DNA from: a virus | Lineage: Duplodnaviria; Caudoviricetes | Reading direction: 5' to 3' (one strand) | Virus record (IMG/VR): IMGVR_UViG_3300020045_005939 | Location: 1-30,516 of that record | Length of the DNA: 30,516 nucleotides | Shown here: in pieces, positions 2,645 to 27,321 of the stretch | Position numbering within the stretch: the first letter of the stretch is position 1 | Layout: the number at the start of each line of letters is the position of its first letter | Notes under the pieces: generated by a model | Told to the model about the DNA's origin: nothing | Database searches by the model: none | What the model saw: the letters and a program-made list of their open reading frames with translations, nothing else | Position numbers and translations under genes: made by a program

Positions 2645-4517
2645 TATTCAAACATCAGAACAATATCAGGGTGTAATAGAATCAGCAGGTTCACCACAAT
2701 CGCAAAGCATTAATGGTGATACCAATATCGTTTCTATTTCAGGGAATACGCCTGCAAGAATTAATACGGCAAACATACAAGCTGCATTAAATTCAGGTGG
2801 CAATATACGCATTATAGGCCAGGGAATTGCGTCAATTAATGATACATTAACACTATATAACAACACCAATCTGACTATCGATGCTGGTTTGACATTAAAA
2901 CTGGCTGCTGGAGTAGGTAGAAACATATTTAAAACAAGTCAAATCAATGCGGCATCAGAGGCAACAGTAACTATCGCTTGGACTCAAGGTCTGAGAGCTA
3001 CCGTTACATGGACTGGACACGGTAAAGCTATAGGCGATTATGTATTCTTTCAGGGTGCTGACCAAAAAATGTTTAACGGCGTGTTTTTGATCGACTCTGT
3101 GCCGACAGCTGACACGTTCACTATTCAGCTCGACAGGGCACCATCGGCAACCGCAACCGGGACAATAACCGCAGTAACGCCAAATAAAAATATCACTCTT
3201 AATATCTATGGGACACTGGATTACGATAGTACCAATAACCCCAATGGCACATCATTATCAAAACTTGCTGTCATACTATCTGGTGTTAATATCAACATCA
3301 ATACCGCTAATATTAAAAATGCTCCAAAATATTGTATAGGCATAGGTGCGGTTAGACATGTAAACATCAACAATGTAACGTTCGGTCCAACATTATCAGA
3401 CGGAATCAAAGTTTATGGACCAGCTTACGATGTAAAAATAGATGGTGCTTATGGTTCTAGTGAAGATGATTTTATCTCGCTACAACCAAGAGAAGCTACT
3501 CCGTACATAGGTTATGTATGGTCGTATGGTGACATTATAAATGTTAGTATAAAAAATGTAGCCCCAGATAAAACCAGCACCAGTGCGACAATAACAATGT
3601 ATGCATGTGATGAGGGAGAATACTTAGATAACGTAACTCTTGAGAATATTGATGTTATTAACCGTATAAACATAGCTAGTAATGAAGGAGGAACGGCTGG
3701 CAGTTTTGGCAACATCATAATAAAGAATATCAAAGCACTAGATGATTCTGGTTGGGCTAATGGTGGATTAGGAATACGCATAAAAGGCACTGTTGCTGGT
3801 GTTACTCTACAGGATACTCATGGCTCATACTGGCAGAAAGAATTTATAACAGTCACTTCTACGGCGACTATTAAAAAATTAATGGTGCAAAATTGTTCGT
3901 TTTTATGCGGTTCAAATCATATTGTTAATAATGCAGGTGTCATTAATAAATTAACGATACGCAACAACAACCTTGATAACTTCTTAACTGGTTCATATTT
4001 AAGACTGGTTAAAAACAGCAAAACCATAAATTTTCTTGATGTACATGAGAACCGCTGTAATAAATTAACATCAGCTATAGAACAAGCATCAGGTGTTACC
4101 GCTGGTGGTGTCATTTCATTTAGGAATAACTATATATCAACGACGTACGGCATTTTTGAGCTGATAGAAAATTCAGAATGCATCTTCGAAGGCAACGTAG
4201 GAGACATCTTTGATGCTAGGCATATACTGAATATTAACGGCTCAGGAAAATCTGTAAAACTAACTACGCGAGATAACACCATAACTTTTGGTACAAGTGC
4301 TCTTTTTGTCAAAAGAACTGTTGGTAATGAGCTTGTATCTATTTTTGGATATGACATACCTATCGCTCTTGACATTTTGAATAGGGCAATTCCTGGGCAG
4401 ATAGCAAAAGCGTCAGCATCAATTGGAACAGTATTGATTAACGAAACATGCGTAAATGATACAACAAATGCGGCAGGTTCTTGGCATCAACTATCTAATC
4501 CTGCATTAGTTTATTAA
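2634..4517 (+). CDS. Tailspike / polysaccharide depolymerase, right-handed beta-helix
   Basis: NTANIQAALN motif at the helix start, SDGIKV...EDDFISL (GH28/pectate-lyase-like), and repetitive Asn/Ile beta-strand pattern. Confidence 0.75.
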   Translation: MAINIQTSEQYQGVIESAGSPQSQSINGDTNIVSISGNTPARINTANIQAALNSGGNIRIIGQGIASINDTLTLYNNTNLTIDAGLTLKLAAGVGRNIFKTSQINAASEATVTIAWTQGLRATVTWTGHGKAIGDYVFFQGADQKMFNGVFLIDSVPTADTFTIQLDRAPSATATGTITAVTPNKNITLNIYGTLDYDSTNNPNGTSLSKLAVILSGVNININTANIKNAPKYCIGIGAVRHVNINNVTFGPTLSDGIKVYGPAYDVKIDGAYGSSEDDFISLQPREATPYIGYVWSYGDIINVSIKNVAPDKTSTSATITMYACDEGEYLDNVTLENIDVINRINIASNEGGTAGSFGNIIIKNIKALDDSGWANGGLGIRIKGTVAGVTLQDTHGSYWQKEFITVTSTATIKKLMVQNCSFLCGSNHIVNNAGVINKLTIRNNNLDNFLTGSYLRLVKNSKTINFLDVHENRCNKLTSAIEQASGVTAGGVISFRNNYISTTYGIFELIENSECIFEGNVGDIFDARHILNINGSGKSVKLTTRDNTITFGTSALFVKRTVGNELVSIFGYDIPIALDILNRAIPGQIAKASASIGTVLINETCVNDTTNAAGSWHQLSNPALVY

Positions 4518-5035: not shown

Positions 5036-5274
5036 TATCAAAAGAAGAATACCTTGATGCTTTGTGTCATCCTTTCGAAAATAAGATAATTGACACATGC
5101 CTGGCTATTCTTCTTTTTTGTATATCTATGGGATCCCTCGCTCTTGCTATTCATTTATCAATTAAGCCTTATCCTGTCTCATTAGGCTATAAGCTTTCAA
5201 AGTTCCTGATGGAGACTGACTCAACTGCATGTTACGGGCAAAACACTAAACAAAATAGAGATAAAAGCAAATGA
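5032..5274 (+). CDS. Hypothetical membrane protein (start revised from 4990)
   Basis: The in-frame ATG at 5032 forms an ATGA overlap with the upstream stop; one TM segment (CLAILLFCISMGSLALAIHL). Confidence 0.5.
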   Translation: MISKEEYLDALCHPFENKIIDTCLAILLFCISMGSLALAIHLSIKPYPVSLGYKLSKFLMETDSTACYGQNTKQNRDKSK

Positions 5275-5636
5275 AAAAACTATTGTTATCACTAACTTTA
5301 TTGCTTGTTATTCCACAAGCAGAAGCTTTGAGCCCAGGAATAATCTATAAAAATGACCCTTATTGCGGATTGTTTGGAGGCGCATGTCCTCAAACATTCA
5401 TGTACAACAGGACAGGTCAAAAAGCATTAGCCAGATACAACCCAACTGGGAAAAACTATTGTAATTCAGCAGCAATGAATGTCTGGATAATGGGCCATCC
5501 AAACAATGCTTATGGCATTGGGTTTTCTACTGAAGATTGGCAGGATTTGGAGATAGCTAAACAAAAAACAGGAGGTTATTACAGGTGGGGTTGCTGCTAT
5601 ACTGGTGACCCAGTAACAAAAACATGTTTACAGTAG
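5271..5636 (+). CDS. Secreted Cys-rich protein
   Basis: Sec signal MKKLLLSLTLLLVIPQAEA (AxA cleavage site); 6 Cys in the mature part; ATGA overlap with the upstream gene. Confidence 0.65.
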   Translation: MKKLLLSLTLLLVIPQAEALSPGIIYKNDPYCGLFGGACPQTFMYNRTGQKALARYNPTGKNYCNSAAMNVWIMGHPNNAYGIGFSTEDWQDLEIAKQKTGGYYRWGCCYTGDPVTKTCLQ

Positions 5637-5699
5637 GTTATACGATACCTACAAACGTATCTCAATAAATTTGCGCTTAATCACGGCACACGCTTGACT

Positions 5700-5743: not shown

Positions 5744-5822
5744 CATTTATTGTTTAAACTGTGATAAAACAGCTCGGAGGTAACACCTTAAAGGTGCTGT
5801 GCCTAATCGCTTTTGTTATATA

Positions 5823-5852
5823 TTAGGTGTATAACATGCGTTAGCCACCTAA
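5823..5852. other. Tyrosine-recombinase-type (dif/Xer-like) core site
   Basis: TTAGGTGTATAA-CATGCG-TTAGCCACCTAA: 12-bp inverted arms (10/12 matching) around a 6-bp spacer, with TAA/TTA inner ends. Confidence 0.45.
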
Positions 5853-6610
5853 ATCGCACATATCGCGCAGCCCGTAAAAATATCTTCTTGATCTTCATTG
5901 TTCCGCTTTTTTCCGCCTTTGCTTGACCATATTGAGTAATTAATCTTTTTTTCAAGCTCTTGAACAATTTTAAAATGCTTTCTTCCAGTTTCGTCAAAAC
6001 TAAAAGCCTTTTCTTTCCATTTGTCGCCGCTTGCCAAGCAAGGGAAACATCCCACGCGGTCAAAACCATGTGAATAAAGTGGGTTTGCTTCGCCTCCTAA
6101 AATATAAAAAATATCTTGTTTTGACATATTAAGCACGGGAAGGCGGAAAGTTACACCTAATTTGTATAGGTATTTTGGGTATTTATTCAAAACATCGTGT
6201 GGAACATATAGCGTGTTGTCAATCTTATCAGCATACCGTTTCGCTCTTGCGTTAGACTCGCCTGCTCTCATCCCAAGCCAAACTTGAAAACCGCCTTGCT
6301 GTTCAGCTAAAGATTTATAGAATTTTTTGCTTGGAACTATCTTTAATTCGTCCGTGCAATGTCTAGCCCCTCCGCCCGGAAATCGGTTGTACTTAATAAC
6401 TTTTTGTTCAACACTTCCAGCAGTTATCCGTTCTATTTTCACCCCGTACAAATCCCGCATTTTATCAATATGCGCGTAGGTCAAAGGGTGCTCGAACTGC
6501 GTATCACAAAAAAGACCGATAACTTCGCTTTTATCGTATGACTCAAGAGCAAGCTTTAAACACGCTTGGCTGTCTTTCCCGCCAGATATTGGTACAACTA
6601 TTTTTATCAT
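5849..6610 (-). CDS. PAPS reductase family (CysH/DndC-like PP-loop) protein
   Basis: SGGKDS PP-loop, DT..E...T, R.CT..LK..P, G.R..ES..R, NPLY..GF.RVGC.PC and C-terminal CxxC. Confidence 0.85.
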   Translation of the reverse strand: MIKIVVPISGGKDSQACLKLALESYDKSEVIGLFCDTQFEHPLTYAHIDKMRDLYGVKIERITAGSVEQKVIKYNRFPGGGARHCTDELKIVPSKKFYKSLAEQQGGFQVWLGMRAGESNARAKRYADKIDNTLYVPHDVLNKYPKYLYKLGVTFRLPVLNMSKQDIFYILGGEANPLYSHGFDRVGCFPCLASGDKWKEKAFSFDETGRKHFKIVQELEKKINYSIWSSKGGKKRNNEDQEDIFTGCAICAI

Positions 6611-6716
6611 TTTGATCAGCCTCTATTTCCTCAGTAGCCCATATAAGGGTTTTTTCGTCCCAGTTCCACGGATTTTTTAAAACTAAATATGGATTTAATT
6701 CAATTACACATATCAT
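6543..6716 (-). CDS. Possible small hypothetical protein, 57 aa (MICVIELNPYLVLKNPWNWDEK...)
   Basis: Translated by hand; overlaps the PAPS reductase start. Confidence 0.35.
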   Translation of the reverse strand: MICVIELNPYLVLKNPWNWDEKTLIWATEEIEADQNDKNSCTNIWRERQPSVFKACS

Positions 6717-6752
6717 CTGCGTATAACTCTTAGTTCAAGCGGACAAGCCGCC
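6716..6752. other. attC-half / Xer-like recombination site
   Basis: GTATAAC-TCTTAG-TTCAAGC-GGAC-AAGCCGCC matches the R''-spacer-L'' layout of integron attC left halves. The complementary half was not found nearby. Confidence 0.5.
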
Positions 6753-6965
6753 ATTTAGCGCATTTTGTTCTTTTTCAATTTCAATTGATAATTGAAATAA
6801 TTGTTCTTTGAAATTATCCAATAAATCTCTTGTTAATGAGATAGATTTATATACCGTACTAGCTTTGTCAGTATATGTTATAAAATCAAGTCCTGAGTTT
6901 ATTTTTTTAATTGCTCTGTCTATTTCAGTGTAGCAATCTCGTACATTGTTATAGTCGTTATTCAT
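6735..6965 (-). CDS. Hypothetical protein
   Basis: ORF track; coiled-coil-like; its last codons (GGLSA*) come from the attC-like site. Confidence 0.55.
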   Translation of the reverse strand: MNNDYNNVRDCYTEIDRAIKKINSGLDFITYTDKASTVYKSISLTRDLLDNFKEQLFQLSIEIEKEQNALNGGLSA

Positions 6966-7645: not shown

Positions 7646-8083
7646 TTAAATACCTGAACTCCCAAAACCTCCACGCCCAGTGTCATGACTGAACTCTGTG
7701 ACCATTTTAACAGTTGGATGATATACAGGTAGAAACATAATCTGTGCAACTCTATCGCCACGTTTAACGGTGTAAATGTCAATTGAATCATTGAATAGAG
7801 ATATTCCTATTGTTAACTGATATTCGCTATCAATAACCCCAAGGCAATTAGAAAGTCGAATGTTATTTTTGTGTCCTAATCCACTCCTAGAAACAAGAAC
7901 CCCTACTATATTAGAGTCATCTATATTTACAGCAATTCCAGAGGAAATAAGCTCACAGGAACCTGGAAAGATAATTATATCGTCCTCAATTGCAGCATAT
8001 AAATCAATTGCTGCATCTCCATTGTGAGCGTACGTTGGAATTTTTGCAAATTCGTTTGTAAGTTTAATTTCAATTTCTTTCAT
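7646..8083 (-). CDS. dut: Trimeric dUTPase (start revised to 8083)
   Basis: Motifs AAIDL, SRSGLG, GVIDSEY, GDRVAQ and RGGFGSSG; ATGA overlap with the upstream stop. Confidence 0.95.
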   Translation of the reverse strand: MKEIEIKLTNEFAKIPTYAHNGDAAIDLYAAIEDDIIIFPGSCELISSGIAVNIDDSNIVGVLVSRSGLGHKNNIRLSNCLGVIDSEYQLTIGISLFNDSIDIYTVKRGDRVAQIMFLPVYHPTVKMVTEFSHDTGRGGFGSSGI

Positions 8084-8424
8084 GATAACTTCCAATAAAG
8101 ACCAGCAAGACCAACAACAATCATAAGTAATGATTCAGGCTCAGGTACATTTAATGCCTTTCTTACCTCCATGTCATATAATGAATCGTTGTTAGGGATG
8201 TACATCACACGAGTCTTTTCTTTGGCCCAGGTAGGTTCGCCAAGTTTGTCATACTTTCTGCAAGTAGTACTTTGATTAGCCATTGATGTTTCGAAGCAAT
8301 AATCAAAGTCTTTGTAGAAGTTAGGATCATCAACACCATCAGCTTTAACAAATCCAACAAAAGAAACTGCGATTATTGTTGCAACAAGCATGTTACACAA
8401 TATCAGATAAATGTACTTGATCAT
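8080..8424 (-). CDS. PEP-CTERM sorting-signal protein
   Basis: N-terminal signal peptide (...SFVGFVKA/DG); C-terminal VPEPESLLMIVVGLAGLYWK. Confidence 0.75.
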   Translation of the reverse strand: MIKYIYLILCNMLVATIIAVSFVGFVKADGVDDPNFYKDFDYCFETSMANQSTTCRKYDKLGEPTWAKEKTRVMYIPNNDSLYDMEVRKALNVPEPESLLMIVVGLAGLYWKLS

Positions 8425-16256: not shown

Positions 16257-16608
16257 AACACAAGAAGAACTTCATCGTTTTTTGCTAGAGGGTGGAACAA
16301 TAGAATATATTGAAAGTGGCGATGATAATGTAATTTTAAACTATCAAGATGGACAAATATGCTACCAAGACGGAAGAAAAGCATCTTTTCATTTTAGCAA
16401 GCCTGATGAGTGGAAACCATACGTTAAAAAAGAATGGTATGAACAGATTCATGAAGGTGGTGTTTGGTGTAAAAATAGTGATGACAATATTATAGAGGTA
16501 ATTAAATTCACAAAAAAAGACTTGATTACTGAATATGTTAAAAAACATTATCAGCCAATTACCAAAGAGTTTTACGAAGAAATGGGAAAGCATATCTATG
16601 AATATTGA
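16243..16608 (+). CDS. Hypothetical protein
   Basis: ORF track; AAGGA SD. Confidence 0.6.
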   Translation: MNTFKTQEELHRFLLEGGTIEYIESGDDNVILNYQDGQICYQDGRKASFHFSKPDEWKPYVKKEWYEQIHEGGVWCKNSDDNIIEVIKFTKKDLITEYVKKHYQPITKEFYEEMGKHIYEY

Positions 16609-17011
16609 TATCTTTCTTACAGTTCTTGATAAAGTAAAAAAGACCGGCTATAACAAATGGCTGGCATGTTGCCCTGTTCATAATGACAAAACACCAAGCC
16701 TGGCTGTTCGTATGATTGACGGTGACAGGCTTTTGTTTCATTGCTTTGGGTGTGGTGCAAATGGCGTTGAGATTTGCAAAGCACTCAATATTGACCAAGG
16801 TGAACTATTTCCACCAAAGCTCGAAAACTATAAACGCGAAAGGACGCCATTCCCGGCAGATCAAATATTAACGGCTTTGGCTTATGAGGCCGGCATCGTC
16901 ACAGCTGCATCATATGCTATCGCTAATGGTGAAAAACTATCTCCTGGTGATGTTATGCGCATAGAAATGGCAAGAGATAGGTTAACGGAAGGGCTCCAGT
17001 ATGCTAAATAG
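16598..17011 (+). CDS. Primase-type CHC2 zinc-finger protein without catalytic domain (start revised to 16598)
   Basis: ACCPVHNDKTPSL...LFHCFGCG. Confidence 0.8.
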   Translation: MNIDIFLTVLDKVKKTGYNKWLACCPVHNDKTPSLAVRMIDGDRLLFHCFGCGANGVEICKALNIDQGELFPPKLENYKRERTPFPADQILTALAYEAGIVTAASYAIANGEKLSPGDVMRIEMARDRLTEGLQYAK

Positions 17012-17432
17012 AGACGGATTAGAGAACAGCGATCATTGGGCAACTCCAAAATGGCTTTATGATGAATTAAATTTAGAGTTTAATTTTGATTTTGATCCAT
17101 GCCCACTACATTCAAATTTTGATGGTCTATCTATTAATTGGGGTAAATCAAATTTTGTTAATCCCCCTTACAATCGTATTGATAAGCCTAAATTTATAAA
17201 AAAGTCTTTTGATGAATGGAAAAAAGGTAAAACTTGCGTATTGCTAATTCCTGCAAGTGTAAGCACAAAACAATTTCATGATTTGATTTTACCTAATGCT
17301 GAAATAAGATTTATTAGGGGAAGGGTTGCTTTTTTGGGAACTAATACAAAAGGAGAATATACAGAAACAAAAAAAGGTAAGCATGACAGCATGATTTGTA
17401 TATTTAAAGGTTTTGACTATGCTAAAACCTGA
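17001..17432 (+). CDS. Phage DNA N6-adenine methyltransferase (phage Dam family)
   Basis: W.TP..LY..L..EF.FDFDPC, FVNPPY, V.LIPA and EIRFIRGR. Confidence 0.9.
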   Translation: MLNRDGLENSDHWATPKWLYDELNLEFNFDFDPCPLHSNFDGLSINWGKSNFVNPPYNRIDKPKFIKKSFDEWKKGKTCVLLIPASVSTKQFHDLILPNAEIRFIRGRVAFLGTNTKGEYTETKKGKHDSMICIFKGFDYAKT

Positions 17433-18507
17433 TAAAGCCTACAAAGAGTACATAGAAAAGGCAGATGCGGGTATTAGCTTTCTGGATGCAAAGATAAAGG
17501 AGAAAAAAGACCTTGATAATGATGGTCGTGAATGGTTGTCTGGTGATGTTTTAGCGGATGAAGCTAAGGCTCCTGAATTTTTGATTAATAACATTATCGA
17601 AACTAACAGTCACGGAATTATTAGTGGATCAAGCCAGGCTTTTAAAACATTCCTGGTTGTCAAGCTCGCCCATTCTGTTTGTACTGGGATTGATTTCTTT
17701 GGCCATGATGTTTTTGAAACTGGCAAGGTGCTTTATATCTGCGGTGAGGGTAAAGGTGCTCTTGCTCGCAGAATAAAGGCTTTAAAGATCGTAGAGGGTG
17801 GTTTTAGCGACAATCTTTTTATTCTTAACCAACCCATAGGGATTGATAATATTGCTTGTATGCAGTGGCTTAAAGAGGCCGTAGAGGAGATCAAGCCAAT
17901 GTTGGTTATTGCTGATACGTTTAGCTCTCTGGCAACATCAACAAATGAAAATGATAACTCGGAAGTGGCCAGAACATTAAGGCTTATAAATGACTCTTGT
18001 ACCGGCAATAAAACCTGTTCACTAGTTGTGCATCATTATGGCAAGGATGCTGCTCGTGGCGTTCGTGGGGCATATGCTTTCCAGGGAAATGTTGACTACA
18101 GTATGACTATGGAGCGCATAGAGGGGACCATGAAAACAACTCTGACAAGCAACAAGATGAAAGATTCAGAACTATTTGATGAGTTGAAGCTTGAGGCTCA
18201 TGTTGTCGATCTTGGCATGTTACGCCAGGATGGGCAGCAATCTACCAGTTTGATATTAAAACTTGATGGTGATGCTGTATCTAATGAATATGATGGTAAT
18301 GGAAATGATAGCAGGGTTTATGTTGCGCTTAAAAACTTAGGAAAGGAGAGTTATTCAGAACCAGAAATAAGGGAAATAATCAGACAGGAATTTCATGATT
18401 ATTCTAACCATCGAGTACTTTTTAAGAGGATTATGGACAGCTTGATTTCAAAGAATCTCATAAAAAGTCACTATAAAAAGTTCCTGGTTGTTAAAGAAAA
18501 TGTTTGA
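17419..18507 (+). CDS. AAA_25 / RepA-like replicative helicase
   Basis: Walker A GSSQAFKT, VLYICGEG, Walker B VIADT, ENDNSE, VVHH.GK and RGA.A..G.VD; possible C-terminal wHTH. Confidence 0.85.
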   Translation: MLKPDKAYKEYIEKADAGISFLDAKIKEKKDLDNDGREWLSGDVLADEAKAPEFLINNIIETNSHGIISGSSQAFKTFLVVKLAHSVCTGIDFFGHDVFETGKVLYICGEGKGALARRIKALKIVEGGFSDNLFILNQPIGIDNIACMQWLKEAVEEIKPMLVIADTFSSLATSTNENDNSEVARTLRLINDSCTGNKTCSLVVHHYGKDAARGVRGAYAFQGNVDYSMTMERIEGTMKTTLTSNKMKDSELFDELKLEAHVVDLGMLRQDGQQSTSLILKLDGDAVSNEYDGNGNDSRVYVALKNLGKESYSEPEIREIIRQEFHDYSNHRVLFKRIMDSLISKNLIKSHYKKFLVVKENV

Positions 18508-25710: not shown

Positions 25711-27321
25711 ATGTCCTATGGTCGCATAAACAGAGACAAGATCACACGTCAGCCAAGGCAACAATACCCAGTAACCAATAATGACATTGGTAAGGGTCTT
25801 GTTGCTCTTGCAATTCCTGCTATACAGTATGATCTAAAGACCCGTAAAGCAGTTACCTATAGTGGTAATGCATTATTAGATCAGGATTTCAACGGTAACT
25901 ATTGGCATGGTGCTGCAACCAATTCACCTGTAGATATTGGCGCTACAGCTGGCTTGAGTTCTGTTTTAGATCAGACAAGGCCTTGGTCTATAGCCACAAA
26001 GATATTCCTGGATGATATAACATCATCACAAGAATATATCGGCGACATGAACGCAGCAGGGGCTAACAGAAGTATTGAGCTTTTGGTTAGTGCTGGTGTT
26101 CTGTATGCTATCGGCTATGGTACAACCAACTCCCAAGCCACATACACACTGCCAAGCACTGGCATGTACGACATTCTTGTTGTCAGTTCTGGTGGCTCGG
26201 CGTTTGTTATCTCTCTATATGTCAATGGTGTCCTGGTTAACACAGGCTCAGCAGCAAGCAGTAACCAAGCAGCTGGAACAACACTCCGACTGATGAACCC
26301 AGGGGCTTATACGGCAGGTTTTGGTGCGCTAGGACATATGTATTATTGCGCCTTCTTCCAGGGTGATAAGTCAAAATATGCTAAAGACCTGTATAAAAAT
26401 CCATGGCAATTGCTTGATGGCACAACATCAAATTATGGATTCTTTAACCAATCTGCAATAACAGGTACATTAGCAACAACAAACGCCAACGACACACTAG
26501 CAGCTAGTGGTACTACTACAATAGTAGGCATACTTGCTCGCACAAATTCCAACGATACTTCAGCAGCTTCAGGAACCACTACAATAGTAGGTTCTCTTGC
26601 AAGAACTAACGCAAACGATACTGTAAGCGCATCCGGAACGACAACTGTCACAGGCTCTCTTGCTAAAACAAACTCAAATGATACAGTAGTAGCTTCAGGT
26701 AGTGTTGGAAGTGCTGTGAGTGGTTCTCTTGCCTATGTAAACATCAATGACACGATTTCTGCATCCGGAACGACTACAATCACAGGAACCTTAGCAAGAA
26801 CTAACGCTAATGATTTAGTTGTAGCCAGTGGATCGCCCGTAATTGTCGGTACATTAGCCACAACAAACAGCAATGATACTATAACTGCTAATGGAGCTGT
26901 TGGTGATGCCGTTATTGGTACTGTATCTGTCACCAATGCGAACGACACATTAGCGGCATCTGGTACGACAACAGTCATTGGTTCGCTGACAAAGATAAAC
27001 AGTAACGATACATTAGTATCATCAGGAACGACAACAATTGTCGGTTCAGCATCCATAACAAATGCTAACGACACACTTGTGGCTAGTGGATCAGCCACAG
27101 GAGCAACAACACTAACATCTCAAGACCTGCTAGACATTGCTGACGCTGTTTGGGCTCACAGCACAGCCATACACCTTGAGTTATTGCTAACGGAAGCATG
27201 GGGAAGGTTAGGCTTAGACATAACTGCACCGTTGGTTAGTGGTCAAACAGAGATAAGCTTCGGTTCAATTGTGATGGCATTAACTGAAGCGAGTGGAACT
27301 GTAACCTGCGCTAGACAATGA
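25711..27321 (+). CDS. Fibre-like protein: LamG/ConA-like domain plus 10 Thr-rich repeats
   Basis: LYVNGVLV and LY.NPWQL LamG-like motifs, followed by tandem 21/23-aa repeats. Confidence 0.7.
   Translation: MSYGRINRDKITRQPRQQYPVTNNDIGKGLVALAIPAIQYDLKTRKAVTYSGNALLDQDFNGNYWHGAATNSPVDIGATAGLSSVLDQTRPWSIATKIFLDDITSSQEYIGDMNAAGANRSIELLVSAGVLYAIGYGTTNSQATYTLPSTGMYDILVVSSGGSAFVISLYVNGVLVNTGSAASSNQAAGTTLRLMNPGAYTAGFGALGHMYYCAFFQGDKSKYAKDLYKNPWQLLDGTTSNYGFFNQSAITGTLATTNANDTLAASGTTTIVGILARTNSNDTSAASGTTTIVGSLARTNANDTVSASGTTTVTGSLAKTNSNDTVVASGSVGSAVSGSLAYVNINDTISASGTTTITGTLARTNANDLVVASGSPVIVGTLATTNSNDTITANGAVGDAVIGTVSVTNANDTLAASGTTTVIGSLTKINSNDTLVSSGTTTIVGSASITNANDTLVASGSATGATTLTSQDLLDIADAVWAHSTAIHLELLLTEAWGRLGLDITAPLVSGQTEISFGSIVMALTEASGTVTCARQ
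26458..27099 (+). repeat. 10 intragenic repeats (63 or 69 bp), consensus I.G.LA.TN.NDT..ASGTTT
   Basis: Unit lengths 21,21,21,23,21,21,23,21,21,21 aa. Confidence 0.9.

Follow-up and report, generated by a model that had tools for sequence, protein, structure and literature searches.

Accessory genes bounded by attC sites have already been reported in phages, as in phage TJE1 (2023, PMC9892861), which, like the locus described here, lacks the integron integrase IntI. According to the accessible portion of that report, IntI1 recombines phage attC sites. However, the two TJE1 attC sites that were checked display the ordinary polarity, whereas the genes at our locus are antisense to attC, and our locus retains one half attC and hence forms no cluster, unlike TJE1. 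Furthermore, in the part of PMC9892861 available to us, an attI site is reported only for a cryptic prophage that also carries intI.

Integrons of class 1 and of class 2 likewise include truncated attI and truncated attC forms, and the accessible text of PMC12901181 describes attI cores that recombine despite being shortened, as well as attC sites that deletion has reduced. In those clinical integrons, the truncated attI replaces the attC behind a sense gene, whereas the probable counterpart at our locus heads an antisense phage cassette. IntI can also place cassettes outside integrons, at attG sites, after which the attC can be deleted by slippage (bioRxiv 2022.09.11.507474, available text). 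Such secondary sites require only GWT, in contrast to the target at our locus, whose attI-type L box is seen again in other phages.

The sedentary chromosomal integrons of the Methylococcales share with our locus one copy within the order of the same attC family and, if our locus has a shortened attI, as is probable, the attI core motif and the top-strand order attI, cassette, attC. In contrast to those integrons, our locus has no intI, a collapsed attI arm and reversed genes, whereas the first cassettes of the hosts are mostly sense, and its expression would start at phage promoters on the other side. The origin and travel of gene cassettes remain an open question, and the locus links a phage cassette to specific host attI and attC families. 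With reasonable confidence, we interpret the module, which encodes a protein with a PAPS-reductase domain, as an integron cassette that has its genes antisense, lies between a half attC and a likely truncated methanotroph attI, was likely inserted by a host IntI and is now probably immobile.

Cassette boundaries and a truncated attC site

The stretch analyzed here in full, called the window, is a viral contig of 30.5 kb (30,516 nt) that is estimated to be 78% complete. It encodes P22-like portal and coat proteins, a terminase, a Sak4-like annealing protein, a helicase and a dUTPase, and the PAPS module lies at the meeting point of the leftward early genes and the rightward late genes (Table 1). 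The larger product passes only the Pfam PAPS-reductase domain and scores below the cut-offs of both NCBIfam models compared, with 34 bits versus 154 for the CysH equivalog PRK02090 and 35 bits versus 290 for DndC; its activity is putative. No family match was found for the small overlapping ORF, and Rfam and tRNA scans of the window returned no matches. Among named phage genomes, we found matches to the PAPS gene only, together with one weak 47-nt match in an unannotated record.

Table 1. Features of the cassette locus (positions in the window)
Feature	Position	Strand	Description
TTTTGTT, left copy	5811..5817	+	Likeness to the empty relative L337 stops
Probable shortened attI	5815..5846	+	Collapsed upstream arm 5815-5825; L-type box GGTGTATA 5826-5833; 6-nt spacer 5834-5839; core G|TTAGCC 5840-5846
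Gene cassette body	5841..6727	+	On the attC top strand; runs from the TT in the left core up to R''; genes on the opposite strand
PAPS-reductase-domain protein	5849..6610	-	253 aa; Pfam PF01507, phrog_424
Small ORF	6543..6716	-	57 aa as called; overlaps the PAPS start; N-terminal part common to L342 and L001
attC left half	6721..6765	+	R'' GTATAAC 6721-6727; spacer; L'' GTTCAAGC 6733-6740, extra base included; variable region, first 25 nt only
Phage ORF	6735..6965	-	76 aa; last 9 codons and TGA stop supplied by the attC remnant
TTTTGTT, right copy	6763..6769	+	Likeness to L337 picks up again

The boundaries of the module were defined by comparison with L342, the one locus that came back when metagenomes were searched with the small upstream ORF. 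Both genes recur in L342 among other neighboring genes, flanked on each side by an attC site with all four boxes retained. The two loci align over 888 gap-free columns from core to core, of which 660 are identical, and the likeness stops two bases past the GGCTAAC that begins 2 nt beyond the PAPS stop codon. The second attC of L342 is complete, belongs to another family and bears no likeness to the left site of the window, yet the boundary falls at the same core. One and the same unit, delimited by the G|TT and AAC cores, thus occurs in different surroundings, which makes the PAPS module a gene cassette of integron type. The original prediction had proposed a cassette that ends at such cores; this part stands, whereas reading the module along its minus-strand genes does not correspond to the ordinary polarity of an integron. 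A third carrier, a 977-nt contig from run X5, covers 5860-6481 and 6548-6754 and then continues into the attC variable region, with attC-like letters past 6754, which supports the attC end only; none of the sequencing runs searched covers half of the stretch, and no RNA run with the stretch is on record. The cassette is also a mosaic relative to L342, with 97% identity over 6548-6727 (the 180 nt next to the attC end, 175 of them identical) and about 70% in the PAPS body. Complementarity between the two cores extends over 5 of 7 positions for the PAPS cassette and over 6-7 of 7 in 10 of the 14 cassettes beside sites of this attC family.

The four attC boxes (R'', L'', L' and R') and the rule of the extra base are established integron knowledge. 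At the right site, an R'' box, a 5-nt spacer and an L'' box with its extra base are present at 6721-6740. The site matches an attC in L184 at 45 of 45 nt and a model of the attC family by nhmmer (E=1e-13, model positions 4-50 only), a likeness well beyond chance. The L' and R' boxes are absent from the site, and no partner half was found anywhere in the window. The family is about 98 nt long, and a family-specific scan of viral contigs yielded 17 sites in 15 contigs, 15 of which are full length and 2 truncated. The existence of full copies elsewhere, together with a match that ends inside the variable region, indicates that the missing partner half was deleted. The full-length member in L193 has matching L' and R' boxes and forms a long hairpin when folded (z about -3.7), whereas the window half is unable to pair its boxes into the single-strand hairpin of an attC. 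The family attC of L342 keeps all four boxes with a shortened variable region and has weak predicted folding (z -0.8). Three copies are cut or deleted at one point of the variable region (window 6765, L188 at about 5042 and L342 at about 720-735), which coincides with the loop of a small internal hairpin and is possibly a fragile spot. A CALIN consists of at least two nearby attC sites without intI; the window contains one half site, whereas L342, L189/L190, L194 and L198 do have such arrangements.

The module had first attracted attention for GTATAAC at 5829-5835 and 6721-6727. These coordinates are right. However, the word occurs 4 times on both strands of the window, versus 6.3 expected from base composition, so it carries no weight as a direct repeat. 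Nor are the two copies equivalent sites: the right copy is a true R'', whereas the left copy consists of the end of an L-type box and the first spacer bases of another kind of site. The upstream ORF does take its last codons and its TGA from the right site, as had been noticed.

The motifs had further been expected beside homologous PAPS genes. We examined 60 loci, and an attC pair was found at none of the 58 full-length ones; a TAAC-like word is present at the stop in 4 of these and a weak upstream motif in 2. The idea that PAPS homologs form a cassette family was therefore dropped. L001 contains both the small ORF and the PAPS gene without att sites, flanked by a 17-nt near-perfect direct repeat (around 2900-2925 and 3763-3785), which may represent a second route of module movement.

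A probable shortened attI core

The position of the core in the left site was fixed independently by the L342 boundary. The motif recurs in 11 viral loci, some of which may be chance occurrences, and several of these feature an upstream TATACACC arm and no R'' box. We had also considered an attC collapsed between R'' and L', and this candidate was dropped because the motif family lacks R'' and is found beside intI. In the order of a Methylococcaceae MAG, an integron integrase scored above the cut-off in 155 of 301 genomes, and a related core was present 144-188 nt upstream of intI in 22 of the 28 loci examined, which is the position of attI. Several of these host cores read GGTGTCTA-N6-GTT.

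Profiles built from the host cores gave graded results. With a 24-nt profile, the phage cores in L342, L121 and L194 scored 19-26 bits and clearly show the L-type box, 6-nt spacer and GTT core of the sites beside intI, whereas the left site of the window reached 7.5 bits and sixth place in the window. Simulated sequences had a higher mean maximum (11.6 bits), and the left site is not significant on a window-wide scan. With a 20-nt profile, the left site was among the top 4 of the 1,221 GTT sites in the window and below every host leave-one-out score. A 14-nt profile, chosen post hoc after the 20-nt result, ranked it first of the 1,221, and none of 98 attC right halves reached its score. With the position set beforehand, the left site matches two host attI cores at 10 of 11 positions. 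Its upstream accessory arm is collapsed relative to L343, L351 and the host sites, and intI is absent beside it.

The attI-type core pattern, designed after some of the sites had been seen, was present in 7 of the 15 viral records that contain the right-site attC family, or in 6 after discounting one occurrence inside an integrase gene, and all 38 control phage records lacked it. The 6 retained cores all lie on the attC strand, and 5 are upstream of the attC. Taken together, these results suggest that the left site is probably a shortened attI core of Methylococcales integrons. In the mainly open-access literature searched, we found no description of an integrase-less host attI in phages.

One alternative is that the left site is a hairpin that arose by chance or selection, or the remnant of another attC, and that the cassette entered a secondary, attG-type GTT site. 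Consistent with such an origin, the left site has the weak window-wide score given above, the site and the cassette end fold as a stable hairpin (5823-5852, z -3.2), the accessible text of bioRxiv 2022.09.11.507474 reports GWT to be sufficient for IntI secondary sites, and the junction of the empty relative L337 contains a GTT. However, neither the match to two host attI cores nor the failure of all 98 attC right halves to score equally is explained by this account, cores much like it stand at the head of cassettes in other phages, and the hairpin is followed by no U-rich tail and is absent from the list of the terminator scan. We consider this alternative very improbable and retain the shortened attI as the preferred reading.

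Phage attI-type cores mostly have GC before GTT (L392-L394, L396, L398-L401), whereas host cores mostly have AC or TA (L360-L388), and the GC of the phage cores resembles attC spacers; this difference weighs against our reading. In L344, at about 770-890, an attI-type core occurs in three tandem 30-nt copies directly after an attC. In L358, a bacterial genome, an attI-type site at 1460-1530 heads an ordinary sense gene, with no intI match listed for the genome.

Reversed polarity of phage cassettes

Based on the extra base of L'', the attC's top strand is on the plus strand, and the cassette genes are on the minus strand. An integron cassette gene is usually sense and ends at R'', with known exceptions (PMC5027507, accessible text); the genes in the window are antisense to the attC and do not show this arrangement. 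A scan of viral contigs for the attC left half returned 123 loci, drawn from 43 of the 64 parts of the collection, or 120 distinct sites, of which 70 are full by pattern. Bacterial genomes scanned with the same pattern yielded 155 distinct sites, 64 of them full. In orientation counts that rely on ORF-heuristic gene calls, partial scans and non-independent sites, the R''-side gene was antisense at 52, sense at 15 and uncalled at 3 of the 70 full viral sites, versus 12 antisense, 49 sense and 3 uncalled of the 64 full bacterial sites (Fisher p 5e-11, for sites that are not independent). No more than 50 nt from R'', the bottom strand carries a ribosome-binding site and start at 46 of 69 viral and 14 of 64 bacterial sites. 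Furthermore, the longer ORF is antisense in all 14 cassettes beside sites of the right-site family, one of them a near-tie. We conclude that, across the viral sample, reversed polarity is the general pattern.

We found no account of inverted phage cassettes in the mainly open-access literature searched. If polarity reversal is systematic in phages, surveys of attC sites would miss or misread a large pool of cassettes.

Movement of the block and the likely source of the integrase

The closest relative of the window phage, L337, is 88-94% identical on both flanks and lacks a block of 952 nt. The left end of this block is at a GTT that lies 25 nt out from the cassette core, and its right end is inside the variable region of the attC. 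The difference between these nearest relatives is thus a block event at microhomology, not at the cores. Alignment of relatives had been put forward as the way to see whether cargo changes exactly at the cores; L342 has its boundaries there, whereas the difference to L337 ends at the TTTTGTT repeat, which counts in part against the earlier proposal, since breakpoints unrelated to the cores had been named as its refutation. The L337 homolog of the upstream phage ORF terminates in Q-S-D-stop, and those codons survive in the window at 5803-5811. The intact gene end in L337 favors an insertion in the window phage. On the other hand, deletion between the repeats would be easy, and the syntenic locus of the 70% relative L193 contains a core, an antisense cassette and a complete attC, which favors a loss in L337. 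No family attC was found in the stretch of L338 that was examined.

A repeat-bounded event raises the alternative that the locus is a passive relic, in which pieces of host integrons, such as attI ends and attC halves, were captured by illegitimate recombination and modules are now traded between these recurring sites by homologous or microhomology recombination with the phage's own annealing protein, while IntI has ceased to act on phage DNA. Several observations point in this direction, including the 7-nt repeat at the ends of the L337 difference, the Sak4-like protein encoded in the window, the shared break point of the family attC copies of the window, L188 and L342, and the repeat-flanked genes of L001; such capture was also proposed by Qi et al. 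in the portion of PMC9892861 available to us. However, the attC that follows the gene in L342 is of a different family and the boundary is nonetheless at the same core, which homology cannot explain. Complementarity of the cores has been kept in most of the cassettes beside family sites, and passive capture would give the bacterial polarity instead of the predominantly inverted genes of the viral sample. We therefore consider a passive relic unlikely, and we continue with insertion by a host IntI as the preferred reading.

The contig contains no integron integrase. No match to PF00589 was found in this 78%-complete contig or in the complete relative G017, and the window, without an integrase gene, is not a complete integron. 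None of 20 related viral records encodes an integron integrase; PF00589 proteins occur in 3 of them, score far below the TIGR02249 cut-off or have no match to that model, and look like ordinary prophage integrases. A dedicated phage recombinase was likewise sought and not found in the records searched. With no recombinase found on board, the host enzyme is the likeliest agent, as one half of the earlier suggestion of a host or helper recombinase had it.

These data also bear on a separate phage-adapted system, in which attC-like sites would be worked by a helper or phage tyrosine recombinase other than IntI, including XerCD. IntI is present on no viral record examined, two arms can be drawn around a 6-nt center at the left site, and the spacers of phage cores differ from those of the hosts, all of which are compatible with such a system. 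However, a PF00589 protein is found in just the three records noted above, bacteria have this core motif next to intI, and antisense cassettes are present at host attI sites. In addition, the right arm of the palindrome at the left site is the cassette end, which differs in L342, and we take this arm to be unlike a XerD arm. A separate system therefore appears improbable, and the pair of Xer-like simple sites originally proposed is replaced by a truncated attC together with what is probably a truncated attI.

Returning to the host enzyme, the exact attC family of the right site was detected in only 1 of 401 genomes from the order of the Methylococcaceae MAG, so that a methanotroph is no more than a putative host. 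Among 22 host integrons, 2 have an antisense first cassette in a phage-like layout, with small genes (L381 1188-1355 and L385 2609-2791), which fits a two-way exchange. We infer that host IntI acts on phage DNA from the site patterns and, as far as the accessible portions of the sources go, from the activity of IntI1 on phage attC sites (PMC9892861), the activity of truncated attI (PMC12901181) and the loose target requirements of IntI (bioRxiv 2022.09.11.507474).

In the mechanism that we propose, phages of this group would have an attI core at the distal end of the early gene run, pointing against transcription, and host IntI would insert circular cassettes at G|TT of this core. Cassettes with reversed genes would then be read from phage promoters, and ordinary host cassettes would land antisense. 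The attC of the window would have lost L' and R' and with them its ability to fold, and the block of attI, cassette and half attC would have come or gone as a single unit, by way of the 7-nt repeat and without IntI. The copy in the window is decayed, yet it is a well-documented phage-borne, inverted, integrase-less integron unit. A broader and more tentative proposal, on which we lean slightly toward doubt, is that phages of methanotrophs keep an integrase-less host attI against early transcription and use host IntI to load phage-specific cassettes with reversed genes. If so, phage and host would share one recombinase, and the cassettes of each side, including host anti-phage cassettes, would be silent in the array of the other. 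The filled, empty and differently filled alleles make the borrowing of host integrases by phages directly testable.

Other features of the contig were also noted. Noncoding motifs at 5667-5690 and 5781-5810, also present in L337, resemble a coreless attC right half and an attI-like arm hairpin and are possibly older relics at the same locus. Nearby, 5271-5636 (plus strand) encodes a cysteine-rich protein of 121 aa with a hydrophobic N-terminus and no family match, which is kept in L336 and L337, while other genes occupy that place in L338. The ORF at 8080-8424 (minus strand) encodes a phage protein with a PEP-CTERM sorting motif, which is common to the relatives L337, L338, L193 and L187. At 16535-18507, a Dam-type methyltransferase ORF is flanked by a primase zinc-finger ORF on one side and an AAA_25 helicase-like ORF on the other, and the ORF at 25711-27321 (536 aa) contains nine degenerate repeats with a 63-nt period at 26464-27099.
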